A stretch of DNA of 64,000 nt from NCBI GenBank assembly GCA_963796715.1, contig CAWCMN010000007.1, positions 388,586-452,585 on the forward strand, in the 5' to 3' direction. How positions within the stretch are numbered: position 1 is the stretch's first letter; every line of letters starts with the position of its first letter. A model generated the notes under the pieces. The model worked only from the letters and a program-made list of their open reading frames with translations. It made no database searches and had not been told where the DNA came from. The translations under genes and the position numbers were made by a program. This stretch comes from an uncultured Chloroflexia bacterium. Its GTDB lineage: Bacteria; Chloroflexota; Limnocylindria; Limnocylindrales; CSP1-4. Positions 3,494-59,117 of the stretch are shown here, one piece after another.

Positions 3494-4462
3494 TCAGACG
3501 CTGGCGCGGCCCAGCAGGAAGAACCGGCCGGTCGTCGTGACCGTCGCGCTGCTGAAACCGGCCGTGCCTAACGCCCGCTCGAGCTCGGCCGGTTCGTAGA
3601 ACACCTTCGGCACCTGGAAGACACGGCCGTCAGAGAGGCGGCGCGTGGCCACCTCGGTCGCGGCATCCCACTCGTTGCCCACGGCCCCGGATCCTGGGTC
3701 GAGCCGTGAATCGATGAACGCGTACGTCCCGCCCGGCGCGAGCCAGGCGCGGGCGAGGCGCAGGAAGTCGGCCAGGCGATGGCGCGGCACGTGACTCAGC
3801 CAGAAGCCGGTGAACAGGCCACCTGCGGGAGGCGGTTCCGGCGGCGCCCACGCGTCGCGCTGGTGGAGATGGGCCAGGAGGTGATGCGCCACCAGCCGTC
3901 GGCGGGCGAGCTCGAGTGGCGCCGCGGCCGCGTCGTAGCACCACAACTCGCCCTTGGCGGCGAGCAGCGGCGACCACCAGCCCGTGCCGCTCGCCAGTTC
4001 CACGATCCGGCCGCTGAACGCCACGTCATCCAGCCAGGCGGTGGCCTGGTCGAGCTCCATCTGCCACGCCATGTCGTCGATCACGCCCCGCCGATACCGG
4101 CCGCGGCGCAGGTAGAAGTCGTCATATTCGGGGGCGCGAGCGTCGTAGTAGGCGATCAGGTCCGCATCGGTCGGGTCTGGCGCGGCCGTCGCCACGGCCG
4201 TCCTGGTGTCGCGGCCGGGGGGAGCGGCGTGGCGTGCGAGTGCGGCGTGCCCCGCGTTTGCATCGGACCCCGCGCCTGCTTCGGGCCCCGCGCCCGCCCG
4301 CTCCGCCAGGGCGGCCCGCAACCGGGCGCGCAGGAACGGGTTGTCGCCGGCACGACCGAGACATTCGGGGCAAAGGTGCGCCCATGCTTCCAGGTCCTGC
4401 CGGTCACGAACCGTCCAGCGCTGGCCGCACCACAGGCAATCGAACGTCTTGCGAACGGGCAC
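3494..4462 (-). CDS. class I SAM-dependent methyltransferase with an N-terminal C4 zinc-ribbon
   Basis: A GTG start is preceded by GAGGA (VPVRKTFDCLWCGQRW...HLCPECLG, two CxxC pairs). An Ala/Gly-rich linker follows, then methyltransferase motif I (IVELASGTGWW) and a post-I acidic residue. The 1282-aa ORF listed from 7342 is a GC artefact. Confidence 0.65.
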   Translation of the reverse strand: MPVRKTFDCLWCGQRWTVRDRQDLEAWAHLCPECLGRAGDNPFLRARLRAALAERAGAGPEAGAGSDANAGHAALARHAAPPGRDTRTAVATAAPDPTDADLIAYYDARAPEYDDFYLRRGRYRRGVIDDMAWQMELDQATAWLDDVAFSGRIVELASGTGWWSPLLAAKGELWCYDAAAAPLELARRRLVAHHLLAHLHQRDAWAPPEPPPAGGLFTGFWLSHVPRHRLADFLRLARAWLAPGGTYAFIDSRLDPGSGAVGNEWDAATEVATRRLSDGRVFQVPKVFYEPAELERALGTAGFSSATVTTTGRFFLLGRASV

Positions 4463-4506
4463 GGCGCCATCCTCGCACGCGGGCCGGTCATCTTGCCCGT
4501 GCCGCG

Positions 4507-4755
4507 GGCGGGCGGTCACTGTGAGTGAACGGATGCGGGCCGAGGCCTGCTCCCCAGTCGTCCTCGGGGCCGTTGCACGGGCCTTCGGTCGCTGTGGGTG
4601 AACGGATCCGGGTCGAACGACCCGTGTTGACCGCTCACCCGACCCCTCGGGGCCGTTTCGTTCACTGCCAGTGACCGACGAACGCGGTAGACGGTCGGGA
4701 CCGCCTCCGGTGACGGCTTCACGGGCGCGGTGTTCACGGTGAGTGACATCGATCG
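4507..4755. promoter_or_regulatory. array of four imperfect palindromes GTTCACT-N3-AGTGAAC phased at 73 bp
   Basis: Sites at 4514-4530 (GGTCACTGTGAGTGAAC), 4587-4603, 4660-4676 and 4732-4748 (GTTCACGGTGAGTGACA). Spacings are 73, 73 and 72 bp, about 7 helical turns. The flanks of units 1 and 2 are also similar, giving a degenerate 73 bp tandem repeat in the divergent MTase/trpB2 spacer. Confidence 0.5.
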
Positions 4756-4792
4756 CCCAGCAGGCCGATCCGGGCCCCCGACTCGCGGGCGT

Positions 4793-4960
4793 TCCCCGGC
4801 GCACCAGCCTCGTTGGTGCTATGCGCCTTCGCGCGGCGTCGGAGGAGGGCCGGGGCGGCTGGGCACGTACGGCCACGCTCGGTCCGCTCGTCATCCATGC
4901 CGCTCGGCCCTCCCGGTCGCACATACCACCAGCCTGGCTGGTAAGGCGTGGGCAGCCGGC
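4793..4960. repeat. dispersed about 170 bp repeat element, copy A, with palindromic termini
   Basis: It starts GCACCAGCCTCGTTGGTGCTATGCGCC and ends CACATACCACCAGCCTGGCTGGTAAGGCGTGGG. Both termini match the copies at 57696-57871 and 57932-58107 closely, and the middle is more divergent. Confidence 0.55.
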
Positions 4961-5146
4961 CGGCGAGGCGGGGGCAGGCGGCCGACGAGGCGTCGAGGCC
5001 TGGCCGCCCGCCGCTCGCCCGCCCGGTGCGCGACCAGCGCCGCCACCACTCCATCGTCGCCGCCTCCCGACCGGTATCATGCGGCCCCCGGCGGCCACGG
5101 CGCGCACCCGATGGCCGGCAGCGGGACCGAGGAGGAGGAGCGGGCC

Positions 5147-6508
5147 ATGGCGGAGAAGCGCACCAAGTTCGTGCTGGATGAGTCTCGCATCCCGCGCGTC
5201 TGGTACAACATCGCGGCCGACCTGCCGACGCCGCCGGCCCCCGTGCTGCATCCCGGCACGGGCCAGCCGATCGGGCCCGCCGACCTCGCGCCGCTCTTCC
5301 CCATGGCCCTCATCGGCCAGGAGGTGAGCACCGAGCGCGAGATCGAGATCCCCGGTCCGGTACGCGACGCCTATGCGCTCTACCGGCCGTCGCCGCTCTA
5401 TCGCGCCCACCGCCTCGAAGCCGCCCTCCAGACGCCGGCCCACATCTACTACAAGTACGAGGGTGTCAGCCCGGCCGGCAGCCACAAGCCCAACACGGCC
5501 ATCGCCCAGGCGTACTTCAACAAGGCCGAGGGCGTGAAGCGCCTCGCGACCGAGACGGGCGCCGGGCAGTGGGGCACGGCCCTCGCTTTCGCCGGTGCGC
5601 TCTTCGGCCTCGAGGTCAAGGTCTACATGGTGCGCGTGAGCTACGACCAGAAGCCGTACCGGCGCGTGCTGATGGAGGTCTACGGCGCGGAGGTCGTGGC
5701 CAGCCCCAGCCTGACCACCGACTACGGCAAGCGGGTCCTGGCGGAGGACCCCGACAGCCCCGGATCGCTCGGCATCGCCATCTCGGAGGCCGTCGAGGAC
5801 GCGGCCAAGCGCGACGACACGAAATACTCGCTGGGGTCGGTGCTGAACCACGTGCTCCTGCACCAGACGGTCATCGGCCAGGAGGCGATGGAGCAGATGG
5901 CCATGGCCGGCGAGCGCCCCGACGTGATCATCGGGTGCACCGGCGGCGGCTCCAACTTCGCCGGCCTGACCTTCCCGTTCCTGGGCCAGAAGCTGCGCGG
6001 CGAGGCCGACTACCGCGTCATCGCCGTCGAGCCGGAGGCAGCGCCGTCGATGACCCGCGGCGTCTACGCCTACGACTTCGGCGACACCGGCCAGATGACG
6101 CCGCTGGTCAAGATGCACACCCTGGGCCACGACTTCGTGCCCGACCCGATCCACGCCGGCGGCCTGCGCTACCACGGCATGGCGCCGCTCGTCAGCCTGC
6201 TGAAGGAGCAGGGCGTGATCGAAGCCCAGGCCGTCCATCAGCGGGCCACCTTCGAGGCCGGCGTCACCTTCGCCCGGGCGGAGGGCATCCTTCCCGCCCC
6301 GGAGCCGACACACGCCATCAAGGTCGCCATCGACGAGGCGGTCGCCGCCCGCGAGGCCGGCCAGGCCAAGGTGATCCTGTTCAACCTGTGCGGCCACGGC
6401 CACTTCGACCTGTCCGCCTACGAGCGCTACCTCAGCGGGCGCATGGAGGACTACGAGTACCCGACGGAGAAGGTGGCGGCGGCCCTCGCGGGCCTGCCCA
6501 AGGTCTAG
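5147..6508 (+). CDS. trpB: TrpB-like PLP-dependent enzyme (tryptophan synthase beta chain, TrpB2 type)
   Basis: GGAGGAGGAG lies 6 nt before the ATG. PLP-fold motifs are present ([36 protein letters not shown]). Its length (453 aa) and N-terminal extension are typical of the TrpB2 subfamily. Confidence 0.85.
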
Positions 6509-7891: not shown

Positions 7892-8896
7892 GTGCGGTGC
7901 CATCGAGGCGCCGCGACCGTGGTGCCGAGCGAAGGCGTCACCGGCTGGGCCGACATGTGGATGATGTCGACCCACGCCAAGCACCCCAACTGCATGTACA
8001 TGTGGATGGCGTGGGCCCTCAAGCCCGCCACGCAGGTCCAGTCGGCCGAGTGGTTCGGCGAGGCCCCGGCCAACCCGCTGGCCTGCCCCGTCCTTGACAA
8101 GGGCTTCGCCGACGCAGGCCTCAAGAACTTCTGCACCATCTACCACGCGACGGACACGGCGTTCTACAACGCGGTCGCCTTCTGGAAGACCCCCAGTGCG
8201 AACTGCGGCGACAGCCGCGGCCAGACCTGCGTCGACTACAGCAAGTGGGTCGACGCGTACATGGTCGTGGCCGCGATCGTCACCGTGGCGGACGCGGTGA
8301 TCGCCTTCCCCATCGCGTACTTCATGGCGCGCGTCGCGTCGCCGCGCACCCGAGCGGCGCTGGCCGTTGCCGTCCTGCTGCCCCTGTGGGCGAGCTACCT
8401 GGTCTGCGTCTACGCGTGGCGCGTGATCCTCTCCGACAGCGGCCTCGTGGACTGGGTCTTCGCCCAGCTGGGGGTGCCCAACGTGGGGTCGCTCTTCGGC
8501 ATCTCCGACCTGTCGATGACGATCGTCTTCGTCTACCTGTGGCTGCCCTACATGATCCTGCCGATCTTCGCCGGCCTGGAGCGCATCCCCGCCTCGTACC
8601 TGGAGGCATCGGCGGACCTCGGCGGGCACCCCTGGACGACCTTCCGCCGGATCATCCTGCCGCTGGCCATCCCGGCCCTCGCCGCCGGATCGATCTTCAC
8701 CTTCTCGCTGACCCTCGGCGACTACATCACGCCGCAGCTCGTGTCGAACTCGCAGTTCATCGGCAATGTCATCTACGACGAGCTTGGCGTGGCCGGCGAC
8801 ATCCCGTTCGCCGCGGCCTTCGCCATGGTCCCCATCCTGATCATCGCCATCTACCTGCTCATGGTCCGCCGCCTCGGCGCGTTCGAGGCCCTGTGA
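7892..8896 (+). pseudogene. chimeric ORF: C-terminal fragment of a PotD-like polyamine binding protein fused in frame to an N-terminally truncated PotB-like permease (probable deletion remnant)
   Basis: Residues 20-125 (DMWMMSTHAKHPNCMYMWMAWALKPATQVQSAEWFGEAPAN...YSKWVDAY) align with the last roughly 100 aa of PotD/PotF-family binding proteins. The frame then runs without a stop into permease helices (IAFPIAYFMARVASPRTRAALAVAVLLPLWASYLVCVYAWRVIL, EAS-DLG-R signature LEASADLGGHPWTTFRRIILP) with TM1 missing. There is no ATPase gene and no binding-protein N-terminal lobe nearby. Confidence 0.5.
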
Positions 8897-8897
8897 C

Positions 8898-9716
8898 GTG
8901 AGGGCCGCCGTCGCGCGCGTGGGCCTCCAGCTGGCGACCGGCCTGACGATCGCCTTCCTGTACCTGCCGATCGCGATCATCGCCCTGTACGCCTTCAACG
9001 GCGACCGGGCCCAGACCTGGCCGATCACCAACTTCTCCTTGCAGTGGTTCGGCGATGCCTTCAACAACAGCGACGTGCGGGACGCCATGACGCTGTCGAT
9101 CACGATCGCGACGCTGGCCATGCTCGCGGCGGTCGTCCTCGGCACGGCCGCCTCGCTGGCCGTCCACCGCTACCGCTTCTTCGGCCGCGACATCGTCTCG
9201 TTCGCCCTGGTCCTGCCCATCGCGCTGCCGGGGATCATCACGGGCATCGCGCTCAACGCCGCGTTCCGCGGCATCGGCCTCGGCCTGGGCACGCTGACGA
9301 TCGTCATCGGCCACGCCACGTTCTGCGTGGTCGTCGTCTACAACAACGTCATCGCCCGCCTGCGACGGTCCTCGCCCTCGCTTGAGGAGGCCTCCGCCGA
9401 CCTTGGCGCAGACCAGCTCCAGACGTTCCGCTACGTGACGCTGCCGGTCATCCGGACGGCCCTGCTGGCGGGCGCGCTGCTGGCGTTCGCGCTCTCGTTC
9501 GACGAGATCATCGTCGCCTACTTCGTGGCGGGCACGCAGGAGACGATCCCGATCTGGATGTTCAACCACCTGCACCAGGCCAACCAGCGGCCGATCGTCA
9601 ACGTGGTGGCCCTCTTCGTGATCCTCCTTTCCACGATCCCCGTCTACATCTCGCAGCGCCTCGTGGGTGCCGAGGCGACCGCCGGAGCGGCCACCGGGAC
9701 ACGCACGCGGCGCTGA
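8898..9716 (+). CDS. ABC transporter permease (PotC/PotI-like)
   Basis: A GTG start lies 1 nt after the upstream stop. Six TM helices and the EAA loop (EEASADLGADQLQTFRYVTLPV) are present. Confidence 0.8.
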   Translation: MRAAVARVGLQLATGLTIAFLYLPIAIIALYAFNGDRAQTWPITNFSLQWFGDAFNNSDVRDAMTLSITIATLAMLAAVVLGTAASLAVHRYRFFGRDIVSFALVLPIALPGIITGIALNAAFRGIGLGLGTLTIVIGHATFCVVVVYNNVIARLRRSSPSLEEASADLGADQLQTFRYVTLPVIRTALLAGALLAFALSFDEIIVAYFVAGTQETIPIWMFNHLHQANQRPIVNVVALFVILLSTIPVYISQRLVGAEATAGAATGTRTRR

Positions 9717-10530: not shown

Positions 10531-11415
10531 GTGGGTATCCTGCGGCGCATGACCACGTCACGCCCGCATGAGCCTCGCCCCACCCGCGCCAGTGCGGCGA
10601 GCCGCGCGACCGAGGACCACAAGTTCCTGCAGGGCAAGCCGTATGCCGACACGGCCTTCCTGGAGAGCGACGCCTGGCGGGCCCTGCGGATCCAGGGCGA
10701 GTTCGTCGAGGGCTTCGACGCGATGGCCCGGCTGGGGCCGGCCGTGACGGTCTTCGGATCGGCGCGCATCCACCGCCACGCCCCGGCCTATGACGCCGCC
10801 GAACGGCTGGGCGCCGGCCTCGCCCGGGCGGGGTTCGCGGTCATCACCGGCGGTGGGCCGGGCATCATGGAGGCCGCCAACAAGGGCTGCCGCGAGGCGG
10901 GCGGCTACTCCGTCGGCTGCACCATCGAGCTGCCCCACGAGCAGGCCTCGAACCCGTACCTGGACCTGTCGGTCGACTTCAAGTACTTCTTCGTGCGCAA
11001 GACGATGTTCGTCAAGTACGCCCAGGGCTTCGTCATCTTCCCCGGCGGCTACGGCACCCTCGACGAGCTCTTCGAGTCGGTCACCCTGGTCCAGACCGGC
11101 AAGATCGAGCACTTCCCGATCGTCCTCTTCGGCAGCGACTACTGGGGCGGCCTCCTGGCCTGGCTCAAGGACCACGTGGCGGCGGAGGCCAACATCGCCC
11201 CGGCCGACCTTGACCTGCTGCCGGTGACGGACGACGTGGACGGGACCGTCGAGCTGATGGTCGAGTCCCGGCGCCGGGAGCTCGAGGCGCGCGCCGCGGC
11301 GGAGGCGGAGACGCTCCTGCGGCGCCAGGGCGAGCCCGTCGCGAGCGGGCGCCCGGACCTCCGCGACGTCGAGTCGCCGATCCATCGAGGCGCGCTCATC
11401 CAGCATCCCGACTGA
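10531..11415 (+). CDS. LOG-family / TIGR00730 Rossmann-fold nucleotide-binding protein (possible cytokinin riboside 5'-monophosphate phosphoribohydrolase homologue)
   Basis: Motifs VITGGGPGIMEAANKG and PGGYGTLDELFE are present. The start could be GTG 10531 or ATG 10549. Confidence 0.75.
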   Translation: MGILRRMTTSRPHEPRPTRASAASRATEDHKFLQGKPYADTAFLESDAWRALRIQGEFVEGFDAMARLGPAVTVFGSARIHRHAPAYDAAERLGAGLARAGFAVITGGGPGIMEAANKGCREAGGYSVGCTIELPHEQASNPYLDLSVDFKYFFVRKTMFVKYAQGFVIFPGGYGTLDELFESVTLVQTGKIEHFPIVLFGSDYWGGLLAWLKDHVAAEANIAPADLDLLPVTDDVDGTVELMVESRRRELEARAAAEAETLLRRQGEPVASGRPDLRDVESPIHRGALIQHPD

Positions 11416-11418
11416 CCC

Positions 11419-13161
11419 ATGACCGAAGTCCCCGCGACTGCCGCCAGCGGTCGCGTGCGCCGCGTGCGACGCCACGACCCGAACTACAAGTGGATCGCGC
11501 TCTCCAACACGACCCTCGGCGTGCTCATGGCCGCCATCGACGGGTCGATCGTCATCATCTCGCTGCCCGCCATCTTCAACGGCATCAAGCTCGACCCGCT
11601 GGAGCCCGGCAGCACGAGCTACCTGCTGTGGATCTTCATGGGCTACCTGCTCGTGACGGCGGTCCTCGTCGTGGCCTTCGGGTGGCTGGGGGACCGGTAT
11701 GGCCGTGTGCGGATGTACAACGCCGGCTTCGCCATCTTCACGGTGGGCTCGCTGCTGCTCGCCGCGACGCCCTTCGAAGGTTCCGCGGGCGCGCTGTGGA
11801 TCATCGGCATGCGCATCGTGCAGGGCATCGGGGGCGCCTTCCTGTTTGCCAACTCGGCGGCCATCCTGACCGATGCGTTCCCCACCCACCAGCGGGGCCT
11901 GGCCCTGGGCATCAACGGCATCGCCGCGATCGCCGGCCAGTTCATCGGCCTGCTGGCCGGCGGCTTCCTGGCCACCATCGAGTGGCGGCTCGTCTTCTTC
12001 GTCAGCGTGCCGATCGGCATCATCGGCACGATCTGGGCCTACCTGCGGCTCGAGGAACTCAGCACCACGTCACACCGGCGCATGGATTGGGCGGGCAACC
12101 TGACCTTCGGGATCGGGCTGGCCGCGATCCTCATCGGGATCACGTACGGCATCCAGCCCTACGGCTCCGATCCGACGGGCTGGACCAGCCCGCTCGTCAT
12201 CGGGCTCATCGGTGGCGGCCTGGTCCTGCTCGCGGCGTTCCTGTGGCTCGAGCGGCGGGTGCGTGATCCCTTCTTCGACCTGTCCCTCTTCCGCATCCGG
12301 GCCTTCATGGCCGGCAACCTGGCCGGCCTCCTCGCCTCCACGGGCCGCGGCGGCCTCTCGTTCATGCTGGTCATCTGGCTGCAGGGGATCTGGCTGCCGC
12401 TGCACGGTTACAGCTACGCCGACACCCCGCTGTGGGCCGGCATCTACATGCTGCCGCTGACGGTCGGGTTCCTCGTGGCGGGGCCCCTCTCGGGCTTCCT
12501 TTCCGACCAATTCGGCGCCCGCCCGTTCGCCACCGGCGGCATGCTCCTGGTCGCCGTCGCTTTCATCGGGCTCACTCGCCTGCCGGTCATCTTCGCCTAT
12601 CCCCTGTTCGCCCTGACCATCCTGCTGGCTGGCGTGGGGTCGGGGCTCTTCAACTCGCCCAACGCGGCGGCCATCATGAACAGCGTGCCGGCCGGCCAGC
12701 GCGGCGCCGCGTCGGGCATGCGGGCCGTCTTCGCCAACGCCGGGTTCGTCGTCTCCATCGGGCTCTTCTTCTCGCTCATGATCGGCGGCCTGGCGGGCTC
12801 GCTGCCATCGACGCTCTACGCCGGCCTCGTGGCCCACGACGTCCCCGCGTCGGTCGCGACCCAGATCTCGCACCTCCCGCCCGTCTCCAGCCTGTTCGCC
12901 GCCCTGCTGGGCTACAACCCGATGGCCTCGCTGCTGCCGCCGAGCGTCCTCAACGCCCTGCCGCCGGATCAGGCCGCTATCCTCACCGGCAAGGACTTCT
13001 TCCCCCAGCTGATCAGCGGCCCGTTCCAGCAGGGCCTGACCATCGTCTTCGTGACCGCGGCGAGCATGGCCGTCATCGCCGCTGCGGCATCCGCCCTCAG
13101 GGGCGGCCGCTACGTCCATGTCGAGGTCCCCGTGCCCGACGCCGAGCTCACGACGAACTGA
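11419..13161 (+). CDS. MFS transporter, DHA2 (EmrB/QacA) family, 14 TMS
   Basis: It begins 3 nt after the upstream stop. The N-terminus [27 protein letters not shown] and [14 protein letters not shown] are DHA2 signatures. Confidence 0.85.
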
Positions 13162-13186: not shown

Positions 13187-15493
13187 TTGAGCCACTTCTT
13201 CACGAGTCTCGGGCGTTTCAGCGTCCGCTTCCGGTACCTCATCGTGGTCATCTGGGTGGTCGGCACGGTGCTGGCGGTCAAGACCCTGCCGTCGCTGAGT
13301 GACGTCGCCAAGGACACCACCAGTGGCTTCCTGCCCGCGAACGCCCCAAGCATGCAGGCGGCCAACCTGGCGGCACCCTTCCAGGACGCGTCGCTCGCCT
13401 CGGCCACCCTCGTCGTGGCGCGGGACGGCGGGCTGACCGCCGCCGATAACGCGGCCGTGGACACCCTGGAGGCGCAGATCCGCAAGGTCCCTCGGGTGAA
13501 GCTCGTGCTCGATCTTGGCGTCTCGGGCGACGGCCAGGCTCGCCAGGCCCTGCTCCAGGCGACCGTGGTCGCGTTCAGTGGCGGCCCCGAGGCCACCGGC
13601 GTGGTCGACGCCATCCGGGCCACCTTCACGACCGTTGGGGCACCGGCCGGCCTGCAGATCCACCTCACCGGCCAGCTGGCGACCCAGATCGACACCATCG
13701 CGGCGACCGGCTCGTCGCAGGACCAGACGTCGCAGCTCTCGCTGCTGTTCATCGTCGTCCTGCTCTTGCTCGCCTTCCGCGCCCTGATCGCGCCGCTCAT
13801 CACGCTGATCCCCGCGGCCTTCGTGCTCGTGCTGTCGGGGCCGGTCATCGCCGAGTCCACGAACCTCGGGGTCCAGGTCTCCTCGATCACCCAGCTGCTG
13901 CTGATCGTGCTGATCCTGGGCGCGGGCACGGACTACGGCGTCTTCCTCGTCTTCCGCGTGCGCGAGGAGTTGCGGCGCGGCCTGACGCCACAGGAGGCCG
14001 TGGTCCGCTCGGTGAGCCGGGTGGGTGAGTCGATCACGTTCTCAGCGTTCACCGTCATCGCGGCGCTGATGAGCCTCGTGCTGGCCGAGTTCGCCTTCTA
14101 CCAGAGCCTGGGCCCCGCGCTCGCGATCGGCATCGGGCTGATGCTGTTGGCCGGCCTGACGCTGCTGCCGGCGCTGCTGGCGATCTTCGGCCGAGCCGTC
14201 TTCTGGCCGACCGGCACGGCCATGCGGCACCAGGACCGGGCCGGCCTCTGGGACCATATCGGCGTCATCGTCACGCGCCGACCGGGCCTCACGCTCACCG
14301 CCGGCGTGGCGCTGTTCGTGGCCCTCGGGGCGACGCTCCTGACGACCGGCGTGGCGGGCTTCGGCGACGTGAGCTCGAGCCCCAGCGGCACCGACTCCGC
14401 GGCCGGGACCGCCCTCATCCAGGCCCACTTCCCCTCCTCGCTCGCCGGGCGCAGCGCCGTCCTCATGCAGTTCCCGAAGTCCGTGTGGGACGACCCATCC
14501 GTGATCGCGCGGGCCCAGACCGGCCTGGGCCAGGTGGCCGAGTTCAGCGGCCTCGTCGGTCCCCTGAACCCTAACGGCATCCCCCTCACGACCGACCAAC
14601 TGGTGCAGCTCCACACGACGCTCGGCCCCGCCGGGCAGCTGCCCCCCGAGCAGACCACGACGGCCGTGACGCCATTGCTCTATAACGCCTACCGGGCCAC
14701 GGCCCAGCTCATCAGCGCCGACGGTCGCACGATCCAGTTCTCGGTGGCCTTCGAGAGCGGCGACGCATCCAGTCCCGCCGCCCTGAACGCCGTGCCGCCG
14801 ATGCGCGCCGACGTCGACCGCGTGGCCCAGGCGGCCGGCGCGACGGCCAACGGCGTCTTCGGTAACACCGCCCTGGCCTATGACGTGAGTGACGTCTCCG
14901 GCCGCGACCTCACGCGGATCATCCCCATCGTCGCGGTCCTCATCGCCCTGTTGCTGGCGGTCGTGCTGCGCAGTCTCGTCGCGCCGCTCTACCTCGTCGC
15001 CAGCATCGTCCTGTCGTACCTCGCGTCCCTGGGCCTCGTGGGCATCATCTTCGTCCATCTCGGCGGCCAGGACGGCTTGAGCTTCATCCTGCCGTTCCTG
15101 ATGTTCGTCTTCCTCATGGCCCTGGGATCCGACTACAACATCCTGATCATGTCGCGCATCCGTGAGGAGGCCCACGGGTTACCCCTGCGCGATGCGGTGG
15201 CGCGGGCCATCGGGCGCACCGGCGGCACCATCACCACCGCCGGCGTCATCCTTGGCGGGACGTTCGCCGTGCTGGCCGTGGCCGGGGGCTCGGCCGGCGG
15301 CGGCCAGATCCAGCAGATCGGCTACGGCGTGGCGGCCGGCATCCTCATGGACACGTTCCTGCTGCGGTCGCTCCTGGTGCCGTCGCTGGTGGTCCTGTTG
15401 GGCGACCGCAACTGGTGGCCGTCGCACCTCTCACGGACACCCCTCGAGGGCGACGCGCGTCATGGATCGGGGGTCACCGCCGCCGACAGGTGA
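13187..15493 (+). CDS. MMPL-family (RND superfamily) membrane transporter
   Basis: A TTG start is preceded by AAAGGGA. Two 6-TM bundles are each followed by a large loop, and MMPL motifs are present (GAGTDYGVFLVFRVREE, ALGSDYNILIMSRIREE). Confidence 0.8.
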   Translation: MSHFFTSLGRFSVRFRYLIVVIWVVGTVLAVKTLPSLSDVAKDTTSGFLPANAPSMQAANLAAPFQDASLASATLVVARDGGLTAADNAAVDTLEAQIRKVPRVKLVLDLGVSGDGQARQALLQATVVAFSGGPEATGVVDAIRATFTTVGAPAGLQIHLTGQLATQIDTIAATGSSQDQTSQLSLLFIVVLLLLAFRALIAPLITLIPAAFVLVLSGPVIAESTNLGVQVSSITQLLLIVLILGAGTDYGVFLVFRVREELRRGLTPQEAVVRSVSRVGESITFSAFTVIAALMSLVLAEFAFYQSLGPALAIGIGLMLLAGLTLLPALLAIFGRAVFWPTGTAMRHQDRAGLWDHIGVIVTRRPGLTLTAGVALFVALGATLLTTGVAGFGDVSSSPSGTDSAAGTALIQAHFPSSLAGRSAVLMQFPKSVWDDPSVIARAQTGLGQVAEFSGLVGPLNPNGIPLTTDQLVQLHTTLGPAGQLPPEQTTTAVTPLLYNAYRATAQLISADGRTIQFSVAFESGDASSPAALNAVPPMRADVDRVAQAAGATANGVFGNTALAYDVSDVSGRDLTRIIPIVAVLIALLLAVVLRSLVAPLYLVASIVLSYLASLGLVGIIFVHLGGQDGLSFILPFLMFVFLMALGSDYNILIMSRIREEAHGLPLRDAVARAIGRTGGTITTAGVILGGTFAVLAVAGGSAGGGQIQQIGYGVAAGILMDTFLLRSLLVPSLVVLLGDRNWWPSHLSRTPLEGDARHGSGVTAADR

Positions 15494-15761: not shown

Positions 15762-15837
15762 GCGGGAGTAGCTCAGTTGGCAGAGCGGCAGCCTTCCAAG
15801 CTGCATGTCGCGGGTTCGAACCCCGTCTCCCGCTCCA
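15762..15837 (+). tRNA. tRNA-Gly (anticodon UCC), CCA encoded
   Basis: The cloverleaf was folded by hand: acceptor GCGGGAG/CTCCCGC, D arm GCTC-AGTTGGCA-GAGC, anticodon arm GCAGC-CTTCCAA-GCTGC, T arm GCGGG-TTCGAAC-CCCGT. A TAGGCT -10 box sits at 15745-15750. Confidence 0.9.
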
Positions 15838-40980: not shown

Positions 40981-41340
40981 CTAGGTCGCCGAGGCCCGCG
41001 CCAAGACTGACACGCCAGTGAACGGGCCCGGATCCGCCGCGTTGCTCACTGACAGCTTCTGAACGGGTGACACGGTCCGCTCAACCGGCTCCAAGGTGAA
41101 CGCCGTGTTCAGGTAGGCGACGTCGTACGGCATCCCAGCGATCCCCGATGGGAGCGCCTGGTCCGCCATTGACTCGGCAGCCTCCCTGAGGATGTCCGAC
41201 ATCCGAACGCCTCTCTGGCGCGCTAGTAATCGGAGCCGTCGCGCCGTGGCATCGTCCAACCTTACGGACAGAACAACCGTGGCGCTCCGCACCTCGATGT
41301 CCAGTGGCTCTAGCGTCTGGCGCTGACCTGTCTTGTCCAT
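40981..41340 (-). CDS. ribbon-helix-helix (CopG-like) antitoxin candidate with about 60 aa C-terminal extension
   Basis: GGGGAAAG lies before the ATG. The RHH is VVLSVRLDDATARRLRLLARQRGVRMSDILREAAE. Its 5' end overlaps the last roughly 10 codons of the toxin gene. Confidence 0.5.
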   Translation of the reverse strand: MDKTGQRQTLEPLDIEVRSATVVLSVRLDDATARRLRLLARQRGVRMSDILREAAESMADQALPSGIAGMPYDVAYLNTAFTLEPVERTVSPVQKLSVSNAADPGPFTGVSVLARASAT

Positions 41341-41606
41341 GTGGTTCTTTCCCCTTTGCTGGCTAGCCAACCCGTCACCACGTCCCAGACGGTCGCGTCG
41401 CTACCAGTCTGCTCGATCACAACGGTCACCAATCGCCCGCCGATCGTACGGCCGATCATGAGCTTGCGGTCGGCCTCATTGTCTCGGCAGAAGTACGGGT
41501 GATCCCAAAGAACGTCAAGTACCTCGTCGGGGCTGATCCCATGGCCGGCAAGGTGGTCCTCGGCGCCCGAAGAGATCCGCAGTTCGTCGATGCACCCCCT
41601 TGCCAT
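41310..41606 (-). CDS. RelE/ParE-superfamily toxin candidate (BrnT/DUF497- or DUF4258-like)
   Basis: The pattern HGISPDEVLDVL...RKLMIGRTIGGRLVTVVIEQTGSDATVWDVVTGWLASKGER matches the BrnT-type core (HG[IV]S..E..E....GRT..GR.L.VV). Confidence 0.5.
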   Translation of the reverse strand: MARGCIDELRISSGAEDHLAGHGISPDEVLDVLWDHPYFCRDNEADRKLMIGRTIGGRLVTVVIEQTGSDATVWDVVTGWLASKGERTTWTRQVSARR

Positions 41607-42166
41607 ACTCGTCTCGCAGGCCTATGATTCGTATACAACGTCTACAAGTGTACCAGAGGCGCATCCAGCACGTGATAGAGCCACAGCCCGCTCGTAAGCG
41701 CTCTCCCCGATCGCAGCTTCCGCGATCCTCAGTCGAGTACTTGATCCTCGCCGACGCGGTCGAGGTGCTGAACGGCAAGCTTTACCTGATGGGGGGAGGG
41801 TGGGACGCGATCTTCGTCCCAGCTCTTCAGTCACCAGTGACACTGTCGATCGCGTGCGGAGTCAATGTGACGTACAACGAGACTGACGACGAGCACAGTC
41901 TCAGCGTTGCCGTACGGGACCTGGACGGAATCGCGGTCGGGCAGCCGATCACGCTGTCCTTCCGCACCGGCCGCTCGCCGATGCTTGCTCGCGGCGCCTC
42001 CACGCACGTTCCGATCGCCATCAAGGCCGCGTATCCCTTCTCCCGGTACGACGAATACGTGATAGCGGCAGCCGTGGACGATCGACATGAGTCACGGCTG
42101 TCCTTCTTCGTCCGAACTCCACCCGGTTCTCCGGTCTTGATGCATCCGGCTCGACAGGCTCCATAG
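41600..42166 (+). CDS. hypothetical protein (orphan; true start probably near 41740)
   Basis: It lies in the low-GC islet. The plausible core is (V)EYLILADAVEVLNGKLYLMGGGWDAIFVPAL... with no recognisable domain. Its Arg-rich N-terminus overlaps the divergent toxin promoter region. Confidence 0.35.
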   Translation: MPYSSRRPMIRIQRLQVYQRRIQHVIEPQPARKRSPRSQLPRSSVEYLILADAVEVLNGKLYLMGGGWDAIFVPALQSPVTLSIACGVNVTYNETDDEHSLSVAVRDLDGIAVGQPITLSFRTGRSPMLARGASTHVPIAIKAAYPFSRYDEYVIAAAVDDRHESRLSFFVRTPPGSPVLMHPARQAP

Positions 42167-53680: not shown

Positions 53681-54170
53681 TCGCCTGAGCCGGGCGGGCG
53701 CCTCACCCGCTGGCGGGCGGCTCCCCGCTGGCGCGGCGGCTCCCCGCTGGCGGGCGGCTTCCCAGAGCGCTTTGCATCCAGCGGCGACAGCGACGGAGGA
53801 CGTCACCTTCGCCCGTCGTTTCGATCGCGGGATGCACCGAACGACGGGGGAACGGCCTCCCGGAGGCCCTCGGGACTCCTTGCTCCGTCGCTGTGATCGC
53901 CAGATGCAAATGGTGCGCCGGAGCCCGCGTGCGAGCCCGGCGTCGCGCCCGCTGGCCGGAGCCTCGTGCGAGCGGCGGCGGCGCGCCCGAGGCGTGCTGC
54001 GACATCAAAGGCCCCCTGCCGCTACGAAACAGGCGCGAAAGGCCGAGTCCGGGGAGCTCGCTGGCCGGATGGGACATCAAGGGCCCGCCTTGACCGCCGG
54101 ACGACGGCTTGGTCGGCCCTAGGGGGCCTTTTGTGTCGCACCCGACGGGAGCGGGTGCGGCGCCCGCGGA
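53681..54170. repeat. repeat-dense non-coding block: 3x tandem 18-19 bp unit (CCGCTGGCGGGCGGCTCC), a roughly 24 bp inverted repeat pair around TTTGCATC/GATGCAAA, and a direct repeat GACATCAA(A/G)GGCCC
   Basis: The repeats are seen directly in the sequence. There is no credible ORF between sodX and the convergent oxidoreductase gene. Confidence 0.5.
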
Positions 54171-55794: not shown

Positions 55795-57468
55795 ATGGAA
55801 GCCATGCCCCGAGAGGCCGTCGCGTTCGAGCCCGATACGGCTCACGATCCCGCGATCGGCCTCGATAACCGCACGAAATTCGAGATCCTGTTCGCCGTCA
55901 TGCTGGGCCTCTTCCTGACGGCGCTCGACCAGACCATCGTGGGCCCCGTCCTGCCGCATATCGTGACCGACCTCAAGGGCGCGGACCTGTACACGTGGGT
56001 GGTCACGGCGTACCTCCTGACCAGCACCGTGACCATCCCCGTCTACGGCAAGCTGTCCGACCTGTACGGGCGCAAGCCGCTGCTGATGATCGGCATCGGC
56101 ATCTTCCTGGTGGGCTCGGCCCTCTCCGGCCTGAGCCAGGAGATGTGGCAGCTGATCCTCTTCCGCGCCATCCAGGGCCTTGGGGCAGGCGCCCTATTCC
56201 CGATCTCGCTGGCCGTCGTCGGTGACCTCTTCACCCCCGCCGAGCGCGGCAAGTACCAGGGCCTCTTCGGGGCCGTCTTCGGCATCGCCTTCCTGGTCGG
56301 CCCGTTCCTGGGCGGCGTGCTCACCGATAACGTCGGCTGGCACTGGATCTTCTTCGTCAACCTGCCCATCGGCATCATCGCATTGGCGGTCATCGCCCGG
56401 CTCCTGCCGACGATCCGCCGCGAGGGTGCCCGCAACAACATCGACATCCCGGGCATCGCCACGCTGACGCTGGCCATCGTGCCCGTGCTGATCGCCCTCA
56501 CCATCGCCGAGAACGGCGACTGGTCGGCTCCTGGCGTCGTCGGGGGCTTCATCGCCGGGATCGTCTTCCTCGTGCTCTTCATCCTCGCCGAGATGCGGGC
56601 GGAGGATCCGGTCGTGCCCCTCGAGCTGTTCCGGAACCGCACCTTCACCGTGTCCAGCGTGGCCACCTTCCTGGCCAGCTTCGGCTTCGCCGTGGCCATC
56701 ATCTTCCTGCCGCTCTGGTTCCAGGTCGTGCAGGGCGCCTCGACGACCGCCTCGGGCTACGACCTCCTGCCGTTCCTGGTCGGGCTCATCATCAGCTCCG
56801 TGCTGACGGGCTTCATCATCAGTCGCACGGGCCACTACAAGTGGCTCGTCGTGGTCGCCATGGTGTTCGTGGCAGTCGGCCTGGCCCTCTTCACCAACCT
56901 GCGGGCGGATACGCCCACGCCGATCCTGTGGCTGTGGATGCTCATCGCCGGCGTCGGCGTCGGGCCGTCCTTCGCCGCGTTCACCCTCATCGTCCAGAAC
57001 GCCGTGCCGTTCACCCGCCTGGGGACCGCCACGGCCGACCTGACACTGCTGCGCCAGATCGGGACCTCGGTGGGCCTGACCGTGGGCTTCACGATCTTCT
57101 CCAACAACCTGACGTGGGACCTGCTGCGGTCGCAGATCATCGCCGCGGGCGCGCCGGCGGCTTTCGTGCCGGCGACCGCTCCGAACGGCTTCAACATCAG
57201 CCAGCAGCTGACCCAGGTGGGCGGCGATCCGCTGGGCTCCTTCCTGTCGCAGGTGCCACCCGCCGCCCAGGCCGCGTTCCTGAACGGCTTCCACGGGGCC
57301 TTTTCCATCGCCCTGGCCAACTCGATGTGGGTCGGTGTGGGCGCCGCCGTCGTGGCCGGTATCTCGACGCTCTTCCTCAAGGAGCTGCCGCTCCGCGCCA
57401 CCCACAACCCGACGTCAGAGTTCGCCCGCCAGCGGCCGACCGGGTCCGCCGCTCCGGCCGCCGACTGA
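55795..57468 (+). CDS. MFS efflux transporter, DHA2 family (14 TMS)
   Basis: The signature LGLFLTALDQTIVGPVLPHIV...GKLSDLYGRKPLLMIG is present, downstream of the MarR gene. Confidence 0.85.
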   Translation: MEAMPREAVAFEPDTAHDPAIGLDNRTKFEILFAVMLGLFLTALDQTIVGPVLPHIVTDLKGADLYTWVVTAYLLTSTVTIPVYGKLSDLYGRKPLLMIGIGIFLVGSALSGLSQEMWQLILFRAIQGLGAGALFPISLAVVGDLFTPAERGKYQGLFGAVFGIAFLVGPFLGGVLTDNVGWHWIFFVNLPIGIIALAVIARLLPTIRREGARNNIDIPGIATLTLAIVPVLIALTIAENGDWSAPGVVGGFIAGIVFLVLFILAEMRAEDPVVPLELFRNRTFTVSSVATFLASFGFAVAIIFLPLWFQVVQGASTTASGYDLLPFLVGLIISSVLTGFIISRTGHYKWLVVVAMVFVAVGLALFTNLRADTPTPILWLWMLIAGVGVGPSFAAFTLIVQNAVPFTRLGTATADLTLLRQIGTSVGLTVGFTIFSNNLTWDLLRSQIIAAGAPAAFVPATAPNGFNISQQLTQVGGDPLGSFLSQVPPAAQAAFLNGFHGAFSIALANSMWVGVGAAVVAGISTLFLKELPLRATHNPTSEFARQRPTGSAAPAAD

Positions 57469-57559
57469 TCAGGCGGCAGTCCACCGGACTGCCCCTGCCC
57501 GCGGATCGGGCCCCGCGGGGCTGCGGCCCGCGGCTCGGGCCCCTGACCGATACAAGCGA

Positions 57560-57592
57560 GCCCGGCCCACCAGGACCGGGCTCTTTCGAATT
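57560..57592 (+). terminator. candidate intrinsic terminator after the MFS gene (GCCCGG-N10-CCGGGC + TCTTTCGAATT)
   Basis: The hairpin with a T-rich tail is seen directly. This is a weak call, as U-tracts are generally poor in this genome. Confidence 0.3.
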
Positions 57593-57695
57593 CCTGCGGC
57601 CGTCAGGCAGCCGGCTTCCTTCCGGCGGTCATCCGCGCATCCTTCGGGCTCCTGCGCATCCTCCTGGCCTCCGATGCCTCCTCCCGGGCACCCAT

Positions 57696-57871
57696 GCATC
57701 CTCCCGGGCACTAGCCTGATTGGTGTTATGTGCGTTCGGGTGGCTCCTGGACCGCTCGGTCGGCCTCAGGTGATCCGATCCCGAGCGTGGGCGACGGCTC
57801 GGGACTGGGCTGGCGCGCCGAAGCAGCCACTTACCACCATCACGGCTGGTGAGGCGTGGAAACGGGTGCGG
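57696..57871. repeat. dispersed about 175 bp repeat element, copy B
   Basis: It is about 85 % identical to copy C across most of its length. The termini GCACTAGCCTGATTGGTGTTATGTGCG ... CACCATCACGGCTGGTGAGGCGTGGAAACGGGTGCGG match copy A. Confidence 0.6.
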
Positions 57872-57931
57872 AGATGGCCGCCCGCGGGTAGCGCGGGGCC
57901 CAAGCCACCTACCAGCTCGGAGCCACGCTAC

Positions 57932-58107
57932 GCATCCCTCCAGGCACCAGCCTGGTTGGTGTTATGTGCGTCCAGATGGCTCCTGGACCGCTCGGTCGGC
58001 CTCAGGTGATCCGACCCTGAGCGTGGCGCACAGCTCGAGCCTGAGCCAGCCCGACCGAACACCCACTTAGCACCAGCGCGGCTGGTGAGGCGTGGAAACG
58101 GGTGCGG
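57932..58107. repeat. dispersed about 175 bp repeat element, copy C (direct orientation, 236 bp period with copy B)
   Basis: The 5' end CACCAGCCTGGTTGGTG is palindrome-like, and the 3' end CACCAGC-GCG-GCTGGTG is a perfect 7 bp hairpin. Confidence 0.6.
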
Positions 58108-58136
58108 CCACGGCTGCCCGAGGACGGGTGCGGCCG

Positions 58137-59117
58137 TCAGGCGGCGCCTGCGTCGGAGGTCGGCGTGAGCGGTCCGCTGCCGGGGCGACGGCCCAGGCGG
58201 CGCCGCAGCACCAGGAGCGGCAGCCCGACGAAGATCAGCAGCGCCAGCAGGAACGGCAGCCCGACGATGCCCAGCCAGACGAGGCCCGTGGCCACGCCCT
58301 GGCCGACCTGCAGGAGCTGAGCGACGGCCTGGTCGACCTGCGCGCCAAAGTTCCAGTCGTTGGTGGCGGTCGTGACGGCGACGACGGGGGCCTCGAAGCC
58401 CACCGTCAGCGTGCCGTCGGCGGCCTGCTGCTGGAGATGCGTCTGCTCGGTGGTGAGCTCCTCGATCTGACCCTGGACGTTGGTCAGCTGGCTCTGCACA
58501 TCCAGGATGTCGGAGATCTTGGTGGCCTTGGTCATGATGCCCTGGAGGGCGGTCTCGGTGACCCGCAGGTTCTGGATCCGCGCTCCCAGATCGATGACCT
58601 GGCCGGTGACCTCGGTCGCGTCGGTCTTCTCGCTGAGGACCTTGGTGCCAAGGCCGCGGAGGGCGTTGAGGGCGGCGTCCCACTGGTCGGCGGGGATGCG
58701 GTAGGTGATCGAGGCGACGGGCTGGTCGCCCTTGGTCGACTGCTCCGAGCCGCTGACGTACCCGCCGAAGCCGCTGATCAGCGTGCGGGCGCGAACGACG
58801 GCCGCGTCGACGTCGGTGACCTGGAGGTCGAGCGTGCCGGTCTTGACGACGAGCGCCTGCTCGGCCGCGGCCGCCTCGGTGCCGGTCGTGGTCGCGTCGG
58901 TGCCGCTGCCGCCGGACTGGACGTCGGCGGGGGCCGGCTGCGCGGCCGGTGCGGCCGCCGGCTCGCCCTGCGCGTCGACGGCGCTGCCCGCGTTATCGAC
59001 GGCGGCACGGTCGACGGGCGCGGCCGAACCCGAGCAGGCTGCCACGAGGAGGACGATGACCGCCACCGAGAACAGCACGGTGGCCGTGCGATGGAGGTGG
59101 CCGGATGGGCGGTTCAT
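58137..59117 (-). CDS. DUF4349-domain lipoprotein
   Basis: The lipobox VIVLLVAAC is followed by an Ala/Pro-rich linker, a DUF4349-like region and a C-terminal TM segment. Confidence 0.65.
   Translation of the reverse strand: MNRPSGHLHRTATVLFSVAVIVLLVAACSGSAAPVDRAAVDNAGSAVDAQGEPAAAPAAQPAPADVQSGGSGTDATTTGTEAAAAEQALVVKTGTLDLQVTDVDAAVVRARTLISGFGGYVSGSEQSTKGDQPVASITYRIPADQWDAALNALRGLGTKVLSEKTDATEVTGQVIDLGARIQNLRVTETALQGIMTKATKISDILDVQSQLTNVQGQIEELTTEQTHLQQQAADGTLTVGFEAPVVAVTTATNDWNFGAQVDQAVAQLLQVGQGVATGLVWLGIVGLPFLLALLIFVGLPLLVLRRRLGRRPGSGPLTPTSDAGAA

Follow-up and report, generated by a model that had tools for sequence, protein, structure and literature searches.

A palindrome-ended intergenic repeat, possibly of the MITE type, at two loci in a genome of Candidatus Limnocylindria

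A short repeat with palindromic ends occurs in three copies (A, B, and C) at two intergenic loci of the 64-kb stretch of DNA analyzed here (hereafter, the window). We tentatively read these copies as a small, lineage-restricted family of non-coding, non-autonomous elements of the MITE type, low in copy number and mobile or recently mobile. This reading, which may well be correct, is supported by filled and empty sites among related strains, by 24-bp inverted-repeat ends, by a 17-bp direct repeat flanking one of the insertions, and by islands shared with other polymorphic hairpins. The preliminary description of this DNA had offered two readings, a MITE/REP-like mobile repeat and a family of small structured RNAs; the same four lines of evidence favor the former, and the latter was not supported.

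Copies, ends, and folding

The proposal of a repeat family was borne out by motif searches of the 64-kb window. The 5′ motif GCACCAGCCTGGTTGGTGYTATGYGC (26 nt) gave three matches with up to three mismatches (at 4801, 57708, and 57944), and the 3′ motif CACCAGCNNGGCTGGTRAGGCGTGG (25 nt) likewise gave three (at 4927, 57835, and 58071), as against 0.00 matches expected from shuffled sequences for either motif. All three copies are on the + strand, with a spacing of 109–110 nt between the 5′ and 3′ motifs. With each copy measured from the initial C of its 5′ palindrome through AGGCGTGG, the coordinates of the copies and of their ends are as follows.

4802–4951, + strand: copy A, 150 nt, including the 5′ palindrome and the AGGCGTGG tail (motif matches and fold)
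57709–57859, + strand: copy B, 151 nt; with its GCATCC leader and GGGTGCGG tail, 57696–57871
57945–58095, + strand: copy C, 151 nt; with leader and tail, 57932–58107
57945–57968, + strand: left terminal inverted repeat of C, CACCAGCCTGGTTGGTGTTATGTG (reverse-complement match, inverted repeat I1, and palindrome scan); equivalents at 4802–4825 in A and 57709–57732 in B
58064–58087, + strand: right terminal inverted repeat of C, CACTTAGCACCAGCGCGGCTGGTG (3′ motif, palindrome scan, and inverted repeats); equivalents at 4920–4943 in A and 57828–57851 in B

The element thus delimited is about 150 bp in size, or about 176 bp with the outer leader and tail, where the GCATCC leader pairs with a GGGTGC tail in a weaker outer stem (about 25 nt extra). 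The limits first assigned to the B–C pair, 57696–58107, coincide exactly with the start of the leader of B and the end of the GGGTGCGG tail of C. Together, B and C form a 192-nt direct repeat that is 83% identical at a spacing of 236 bp, and their 151-nt cores are 86% identical, in agreement with the earlier estimate of about 85%. Copy A was said to share both termini but to have a divergent middle, and this was also the case: A is 64% identical to B or C overall, with the likeness confined to the ends, which have the same spacing, and its 91-nt core has no detectable homology to the cores of B or C in either orientation. The hairpin of A is extended by self-complementary flanks to about 4774–4975, with an outer inverted repeat at 4774–4790 and 4959–4975 that is 88% complementary.

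Five distinct copies, including those found in relatives of the window, are all 150–151 nt long and nearly free of indels despite a divergence of 14–37%, whereas the adjoining spacers are full of indels. No reading frame is conserved between the copies, and we took the element (150–176 bp) to be non-coding. A single frame is open in A, B, and C and also in one of the pair of copies on the related contig L001; a profile of it was used to look for spurious ORFs called over further copies, and its sole match, P0241, was an unrelated 67-aa tandem-repeat ORF. That spurious weak match to the translated element is located on contig L011 (GCA_018402085.1, 10001–10837), where a 278-aa ORF consists of four tandem 67-aa (201-bp) repeats, and the neighboring genes of L011 encode domains such as Por secretion tail and CarbopepD_reg_2.

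Each terminal 17-mer is a palindrome of the form CACCAGC-N3-GCTGGTG (CACCAGC-N3-GYTGGTG at the left end of C). A scan of the window for this palindrome at up to two mismatches found five matches, all of them inside the elements, against 0.68 expected, and no solo palindrome was found elsewhere in the window, promoter regions included. When the first 24 nt of a copy were compared with the reverse complement of its last 24 nt, 17–19 of the 24 positions matched in all five distinct copies, so that the elements carry terminal inverted repeats, as MITEs do. The consensus of the ends is CACCAGCC-N4-TGGTG-NTA-NGTG. Because the terminal 17-mers are palindromic, the ends are at once direct and inverted repeats of each other, and each copy also presents two inverted palindromic units that form a hairpin, as REPs and REPINs do.

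Folding with RNAfold closed every copy by a long-range stem between its ends, with z scores from −1.4 to −3.9. The fold of copy A reached −94.5 kcal/mol (z −2.7) and that of the opposite strand −92.0 kcal/mol; the corresponding values for copy C were −80.1 and −79.1 kcal/mol. Within the closing stem, the five distinct copies folded into different branched cores, and the basal stem alone was conserved. G.T mismatches in the closing stem numbered six, as compared with five A.C mismatches. As both strands fold about equally and the two kinds of mismatch are balanced, the copies give no sign that one strand has been selected as RNA. Across the five distinct copies, the long-range stem paired 90.5% of cells and an alternative of two local 7-bp hairpins paired 88.6%. 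Covariation was not above that of shuffles for either the long-range stem (163 of 500) or the local hairpins, a comparison to which five sequences lend little power.

Filled and empty sites in related strains

Exact look-ups with two proteins of the window gave no record, and relatives of the window were collected as syntenic contigs from ENA assemblies, relatives being present in ERZ25039537, ERZ25039551, ERZ25039557, and ERZ25039558. The closest homologues of the flanking proteins bearing a source name were mostly labeled “Candidatus Limnocylindrales bacterium”, an order in Chloroflexota. Pfam identified the neighboring genes as those of an MFS transporter, a DUF4349 protein, a MarR regulator, a TrpB-like PALP enzyme, and a methyltransferase. 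The gene context had been described correctly: the MFS gene (55795–57468, + strand) and the DUF4349 gene (58137–59117, − strand) converge on B and C, and the gene of the TrpB-like PALP enzyme (trpB2) starts at 5147, which places copy A about 190 bp upstream of it, as claimed.

At the trpB2 locus (locus 1), the following features were delimited.

4472–5053, no strand assigned: composite insertion ahead of trpB2, delimited by BLAST alignment with L007 and L008 and by junction sequences, and comprising hairpin X, X-like fragments, and copy A
4513–4677: hairpin X, with 33-nt inverted arms; fragments at 4584–4616 and 4729–4748, and a relative at 9150–9345 of L012

The insertion occupies about 580 bp in the window, as compared with 22 bp in L007, whose TrpB-like protein is 96% identical to that of the window; the gap in L008–L010 is similarly short. 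Hairpin X is of the same design as A, B, and C, with palindromic ends (TCACTG..CAGTGA), a total length of about 165 nt, and a z score of −3.6. In our own reading, copy A lies outside the trpB2 leader, upstream of a candidate TATNNT −10-like hexamer conserved in the 94 bp that the window shares with L007 and L008. Elsewhere in this syntenic region, the MFS transporter gene at 11419–13161 (580 aa) is missing from L007; in turn, some 2 kb of additional ABC-transporter DNA is present in L007 near position 7920 of the window. This window-specific 1.7-kb segment was considered as a parent insertion sequence and rejected on account of its being the MFS gene.

At the MFS/DUF4349 locus (locus 2), the insert and its surroundings comprise the following features in addition to B and C.

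57556–57590, no strand assigned: putative bidirectional terminator, a G+C-rich hairpin preceded by an A-tract and followed by a T-tract, conserved in L003, L004, L005, L013, and the window
57595–57611, + strand: left copy of a 17-bp direct repeat, carrying a duplicate of the DUF4349 stop codon; a single copy is present at empty sites
57626–57707, + strand: tandem array of four short, incomplete copies of the 5′ leader GCGCATCCYYCNGG, with a period of about 19–21 bp, directly upstream of B (direct-repeat families D2 and D4)
58129–58145, + strand: right copy of the 17-bp direct repeat, overlapping the true DUF4349 stop codon (gene end 58137)

The convergent gap between the MFS and DUF4349 genes measures 668 bp in the window and in L001 and L002, which are about 94–95% identical to the window at the DNA level and each carry two diverged copies of the family at the same positions. 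In L003, L004, L005, and L013 (80–90% identical), the gap is only about 60–90 bp long and holds just the terminator hairpin. The hairpin at 57556–57590 was not flagged by a simple terminator scan; from its sequence it reads as a terminator common to the two convergent genes, and B and C probably lie in the DUF4349 3′ UTR, upstream of it. The whole B–C island is bracketed by the 17-bp direct repeat TGCGGCCGTCAGGC[A/G]GC, whose two copies are 94% identical at a spacing of 534 bp (family D5). The 534-bp insert consists, in order, of the four partial leader copies, copy B, a spacer, and copy C. Around single copies we could read by eye just imperfect 6–8-bp G+C-rich direct repeats (GGCCAC-like and CAGGCCGA-like).

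Since the gaps filled here are short or empty in relatives, both loci represent insertions relative to near relatives. Orthologous filled and empty sites, a hallmark of MITEs, were found at both loci, the empty ones being those of L003, L004, L005, and L013 at locus 2 and of L007–L010 at locus 1. The inserts at both loci are composites of about 530–580 bp and not single elements.

A third allelic state of locus 2 was found in L012. This contig is 98.4% identical to the window over 5.9 kb, up to position 58133, and from the DUF4349 stop codon on it carries a wholly different, X-type element, which shares the 18-mer GTGTTCACGGTGAGTGAC with positions 4731–4748 of the window. L012 ends about 320 bp past the stop codon, just beyond the island and inside the terminator hairpin. 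A comparison of the window, the empty-site relatives, and L012 thus reveals three allelic states (empty, B–C doublet, and X-type singlet) that all start within 0–3 nt of one stop codon. In L003, at 11341–12000, the MFS gene breaks off after about 290 bp, and the DNA beyond is lower in GC and has no alignment to the window, so that this relative has a rearrangement or insertion at that point.

The B–C region also differs from its surroundings in its rate of change. Between the window and L001, coding segments are 95–98.6% identical and 11 of the 14 intergenic segments 93–100% identical, the exceptions being the B–C gap (73.9%, with 79 gap columns), a third island described below (the Y island, 85.5%), and one 19-bp segment (89.5%). 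The B–C intergenic region has thereby diverged about eight times faster than the sequence around it. The most similar copies are not those that occupy corresponding positions in the two strains: copy B of the window is nearest to copy C of the window (86%) and then to the copy at the C position of L001 (85%), while the copy at the B position of L001 is 73–76% identical to all others. The alignment of the copies is a mosaic, with a strain-specific middle block and a 3′ block shared crosswise between strains. The strain-specific middle block points to concerted evolution within each genome, and from the mosaic pattern we infer gene conversion or recombination among copies.

Neighboring hairpin families and the reach of the repeat

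Hairpins of comparable design occupy a third island of the window, between the genes of a peptidase S26 and a luciferase-like protein.

53694–54167: third island, with 19-bp tandem repeats and hairpins Y1 and Y2
53771–53910: hairpin Y1, with 28-nt inverted ends TTGCATCCAGCGGCGACAGCGACGGAG; further copies at 15040–15193, 3871–4019, and 1191–1351 of L001 and at 1983–2129 of L012
53998–54140: hairpin Y2, with 20-nt arms that are 90% complementary

Y1 has a conserved internal motif, GATGCAACGAACGACGGAGGAACG, and sharply bounded copies at four loci, namely, the window locus and three others in L001, L002, and L012. These paralogues at separate loci indicate that hairpin repeats of such design are dispersed in these genomes; no paralogue of Y2 was found in the fetched related DNA. 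An 18-bp inverted repeat (GCGGGCGCCTCACCCGCT / AGCGGGTGCGGCGCCCGC) borders the Y island on both sides. L004 and L013 lack this island and have just 10–12 bp between the two stop codons. Island boundaries take two forms, the 17-bp direct repeat at locus 2 and inverted repeats of 12–18 bp elsewhere. The exact 10-mer CGGGTGCGGC occurs just three times in the window (54152, 58099, and 58125), and all three occurrences mark the right end of an element or of an island; in our own reading of the sequence, it is the 3′ partner of the GCGCATCC leader. Short tandem repeats, with units of 19–23 bp and, in L001, a 9-bp GGCCACGGC microsatellite, lie beside the hairpins in the window (53706–53763 and 57626–57707) and at about 11240–11285 of L001, and their position beside hairpin elements suggests slippage-prone DNA.

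The repeat itself was found at few sites. The preliminary description had called the family dispersed; its repetition is evident, and its dispersal amounts to just two loci, with three copies in 64 kb and no further copy detected by nhmmer in the 64-kb window or in the related loci L003–L012. Degenerate end motifs that match every known copy gave no hits in two scans of 185,579 species-representative genomes (GTDB). A scan of JGI metagenomes for the end motifs returned a single match, L006, which we discarded as due to chance, as it is a lower-GC contig without the 5′ motif. No viral contig matched the end motifs, and no plasmid or phage was found by blastn. None of these collections evidently includes the source genome. 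The family is at least narrowly distributed, and a literature search found no description of such repeats for Ca. Limnocylindria.

Nor was a partner for the element found: the Pfam tables of L001, L004, L005, L007, and L008 contained no transposase or integrase domain, and neither the fetched loci nor the end-motif scans of public collections yielded an insertion sequence or transposase with matching ends. Among the other genes of the window, those at 40981–42166 encode an RHH_1 protein (40981–41370), a protein with a weak BrnT-like match (41310–41606; 23.6 bits, below the Pfam cut-off of 34.5), and an adjoining DUF6941 protein; none of the three passed a gene filter of GC3 > 0.80. The RHH_1/BrnT-like pair at 40981–41606 is a probable toxin–antitoxin system.

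Origin and significance of the repeat

The MITE-type reading has in its favor that two loci separated by 53 kb present the same termini of about 25 nt, equally spaced and enclosing unrelated cores. Further points for it are the rapid turnover of the B–C region, the mosaic pattern of the copies, the X-type hairpin at the locus 2 site of L012, the dispersed and polymorphic hairpin families of like design, and the absence of RNA-gene signals. In the course of events that we envisage, a transposase encoded elsewhere in the genome would bind the ends and move the element, and the palindromic ends would be suited to a dimeric protein or to recognition as a single-strand hairpin. The elements lie in insertion-prone intergenic islands, of which one follows the DUF4349 stop codon directly and the other closely precedes the trpB2 promoter region; unrelated hairpin repeats and short tandem debris are present in these islands as well. 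B and C may have arisen by tandem duplication and, to judge from the mosaic, may then have been reshuffled and homogenized by gene conversion; ongoing reshuffling of this kind would explain the roughly eightfold faster divergence of the B–C intergenic region. Effects on the host would be a by-product: where the elements are transcribed, for example, as the DUF4349 3′ UTR that extends to the shared terminator, they would add long RNA hairpins.

The elements resemble known MITEs, such as Correia/NEMIS of Neisseria and ERIC/IRU of enterobacteria, in being short (100–200 bp) and non-coding, with inverted ends and a hairpin spanning the whole element, in their intergenic location, often in 3′ UTRs between convergent genes, in their presence or absence among strains, and in their tandem or nested clusters. 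They differ from them in having no sequence likeness to described families, a very low copy number in the DNA covered, no clean short target duplication, no partner insertion sequence found, a palindrome in the outer 17 bp of each end, and an uncultured host, Ca. Limnocylindria. Against a MITE stand the lack of a partner transposase with matching ends, the low copy number, the absence of clean single-element target-site duplications, and the composite nature of the inserts. The flanking repeat of 17 bp is also longer than the usual target duplications of DDE transposases, and the fixed length of 150–151 nt without indels hints at a constraint not expected of a decaying transposon.

Of the other explanations, we consider a local, non-mobile origin unlikely, although several observations speak for it. 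The hairpins would have been made by slippage, duplication, and hairpin-templated repair in unstable intergenic DNA, recombination would swap the alleles, and the ends shared by A and by B and C would derive from an old segmental copy or conversion. Consistent with this, tandem repeats of 19–23 bp and the 9-bp microsatellite border the elements, tandem copies are built of mosaic blocks, the inserts are larger than one element, the island boundaries are direct repeats only once and inverted target copies elsewhere, and no extra copies were found anywhere searched. On the other hand, a local process would have to account for end motifs of 25–26 nt that, at sites 53 kb from each other, have one and the same spacing and enclose unrelated cores, for the sharp conserved ends of Y1 at four loci, which are expected from dispersal by insertion, and for three allelic states that begin 0–3 nt from one stop codon.

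Less likely still is a REPIN- or PATE-like element moved by a single-strand HUH tyrosine transposase, such as a RAYT or the TnpA of IS200/IS605, in which the terminal 17-nt palindromes would be the recognized hairpins and their inverted pair the replicative unit. Each end can indeed form a local 7-bp hairpin that pairs nearly as many cells as the long-range stem does, and the mixed clusters of palindromic families are like the mosaic BIME clusters of E. coli. Two palindromic units that close a larger hairpin and an extragenic position mostly downstream of genes and between convergent genes are also features of REP doublets and REPINs as described in PMC3116915 and PMC3733652. However, no GTAG/CTAC or CGTC/GACG adjoins the palindromes, whose flanks read ..GGG|CACC.., ..GGTG|TTAT.., ..TTAG|CACC.., and ..GGTG|AGGC..; as a GTAG or CGTC tag defines the two published REP superfamilies (PMC3733652), membership among the REPs fails for want of the tag. 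Moreover, the spacer of 91 nt is much longer than in REPINs, a handful of copies in the DNA covered compares with tens to hundreds, and no Y1 transposase or RAYT appears in the gene tables of the fetched loci. PATEs, which derive from IS200/IS605, likewise are short non-coding elements with a similar hairpin at either end; here, in contrast, the ends are also true inverted repeats beyond the hairpin, the left end is not preceded by a visible conserved tetranucleotide target, neither TnpA nor TnpB is encoded nearby, and the island is flanked by a direct repeat, unlike an IS200/IS605-type insertion, which to our knowledge leaves no target duplication.

A more novel and, in our estimate, improbable explanation is that the hairpins are interchangeable cassettes, swapped at intergenic hot spots by a site-specific mechanism acting near palindromes or stop codons, which would make them a new targeted miniature module or a diversifying 3′-UTR RNA module. 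It is suggested by the three allelic states within 0–3 nt of one stop codon in strains that are 88–98% identical, by the length of 150–151 nt, and by the eightfold divergence. The fixed length in spite of the unrelated core of A, the near lack of indels, the composites of about 550 bp, and the odd boundary repeats are what give this explanation and the local origin the weight that they have.

Quite improbable is a family of small structured RNAs (sRNA genes or, alternatively, cis-acting UTR modules) in which selection on the RNA would maintain the closing stem and the fixed length. The nearly indel-free copies amid indel-rich spacers, the folds more stable than those of shuffled sequences (z down to −3.9), and the probable position of B and C inside the DUF4349 3′ UTR would fit such a family. 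However, the loci are absent from relatives of 88–90% identity and hold another element in the relative of 98.4% identity, the cores differ in fold, the strands fold equally, the G.T and A.C mismatches are balanced, and covariation did not exceed that of shuffles. A search against Rfam 15 gave just one gathering-level match in the window, a tRNA at 15762, and in permissive scans the best scores in both repeat regions were at most 19.6 bits, far below threshold. A simple scan found no sigma-70-like promoter, and it gave just two terminator-like hits, both weak and both within the 5′ ends of B and C. Absence in relatives, unconserved cores, and the lack of strand bias together leave a dedicated sRNA or riboswitch-like family a low probability.

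Least credible are protein-binding or recombination sites: paired operators for a dimeric regulator might be seen in the perfect or near-perfect 7-N3-7 palindrome at each end and in the MarR regulator gene adjoining the MFS gene, and invertons in the inverted repeats flanking a segment of about 100 bp, but the palindrome occurs nowhere else in the window, promoter regions included, B and C lie downstream of both neighboring genes, the gene tables of the fetched loci contain no recombinase, and the lack of any reversed core among the copies (z at most 2.2 for the alignment of a core to the reverse complement of another) makes an inverton unlikely.

Read as MITE-type repeats, the elements look like an ordinary kind of feature in a little-studied lineage. 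Ca. Limnocylindria is an abundant but uncultured class of soil and freshwater Chloroflexota, for which the repeat, if this reading is true, would be the first described miniature palindromic repeat family, accompanied by at least three sister hairpin families. The intergenic hot spots that vary between nearly identical strains could then serve in strain typing and would explain breaks in metagenome contigs, such as that of L012, and annotators would be warned off spurious ORF or sRNA calls at such sites. A new mechanism would be opened only if the swapping at these hot spots proves to be site-specific.
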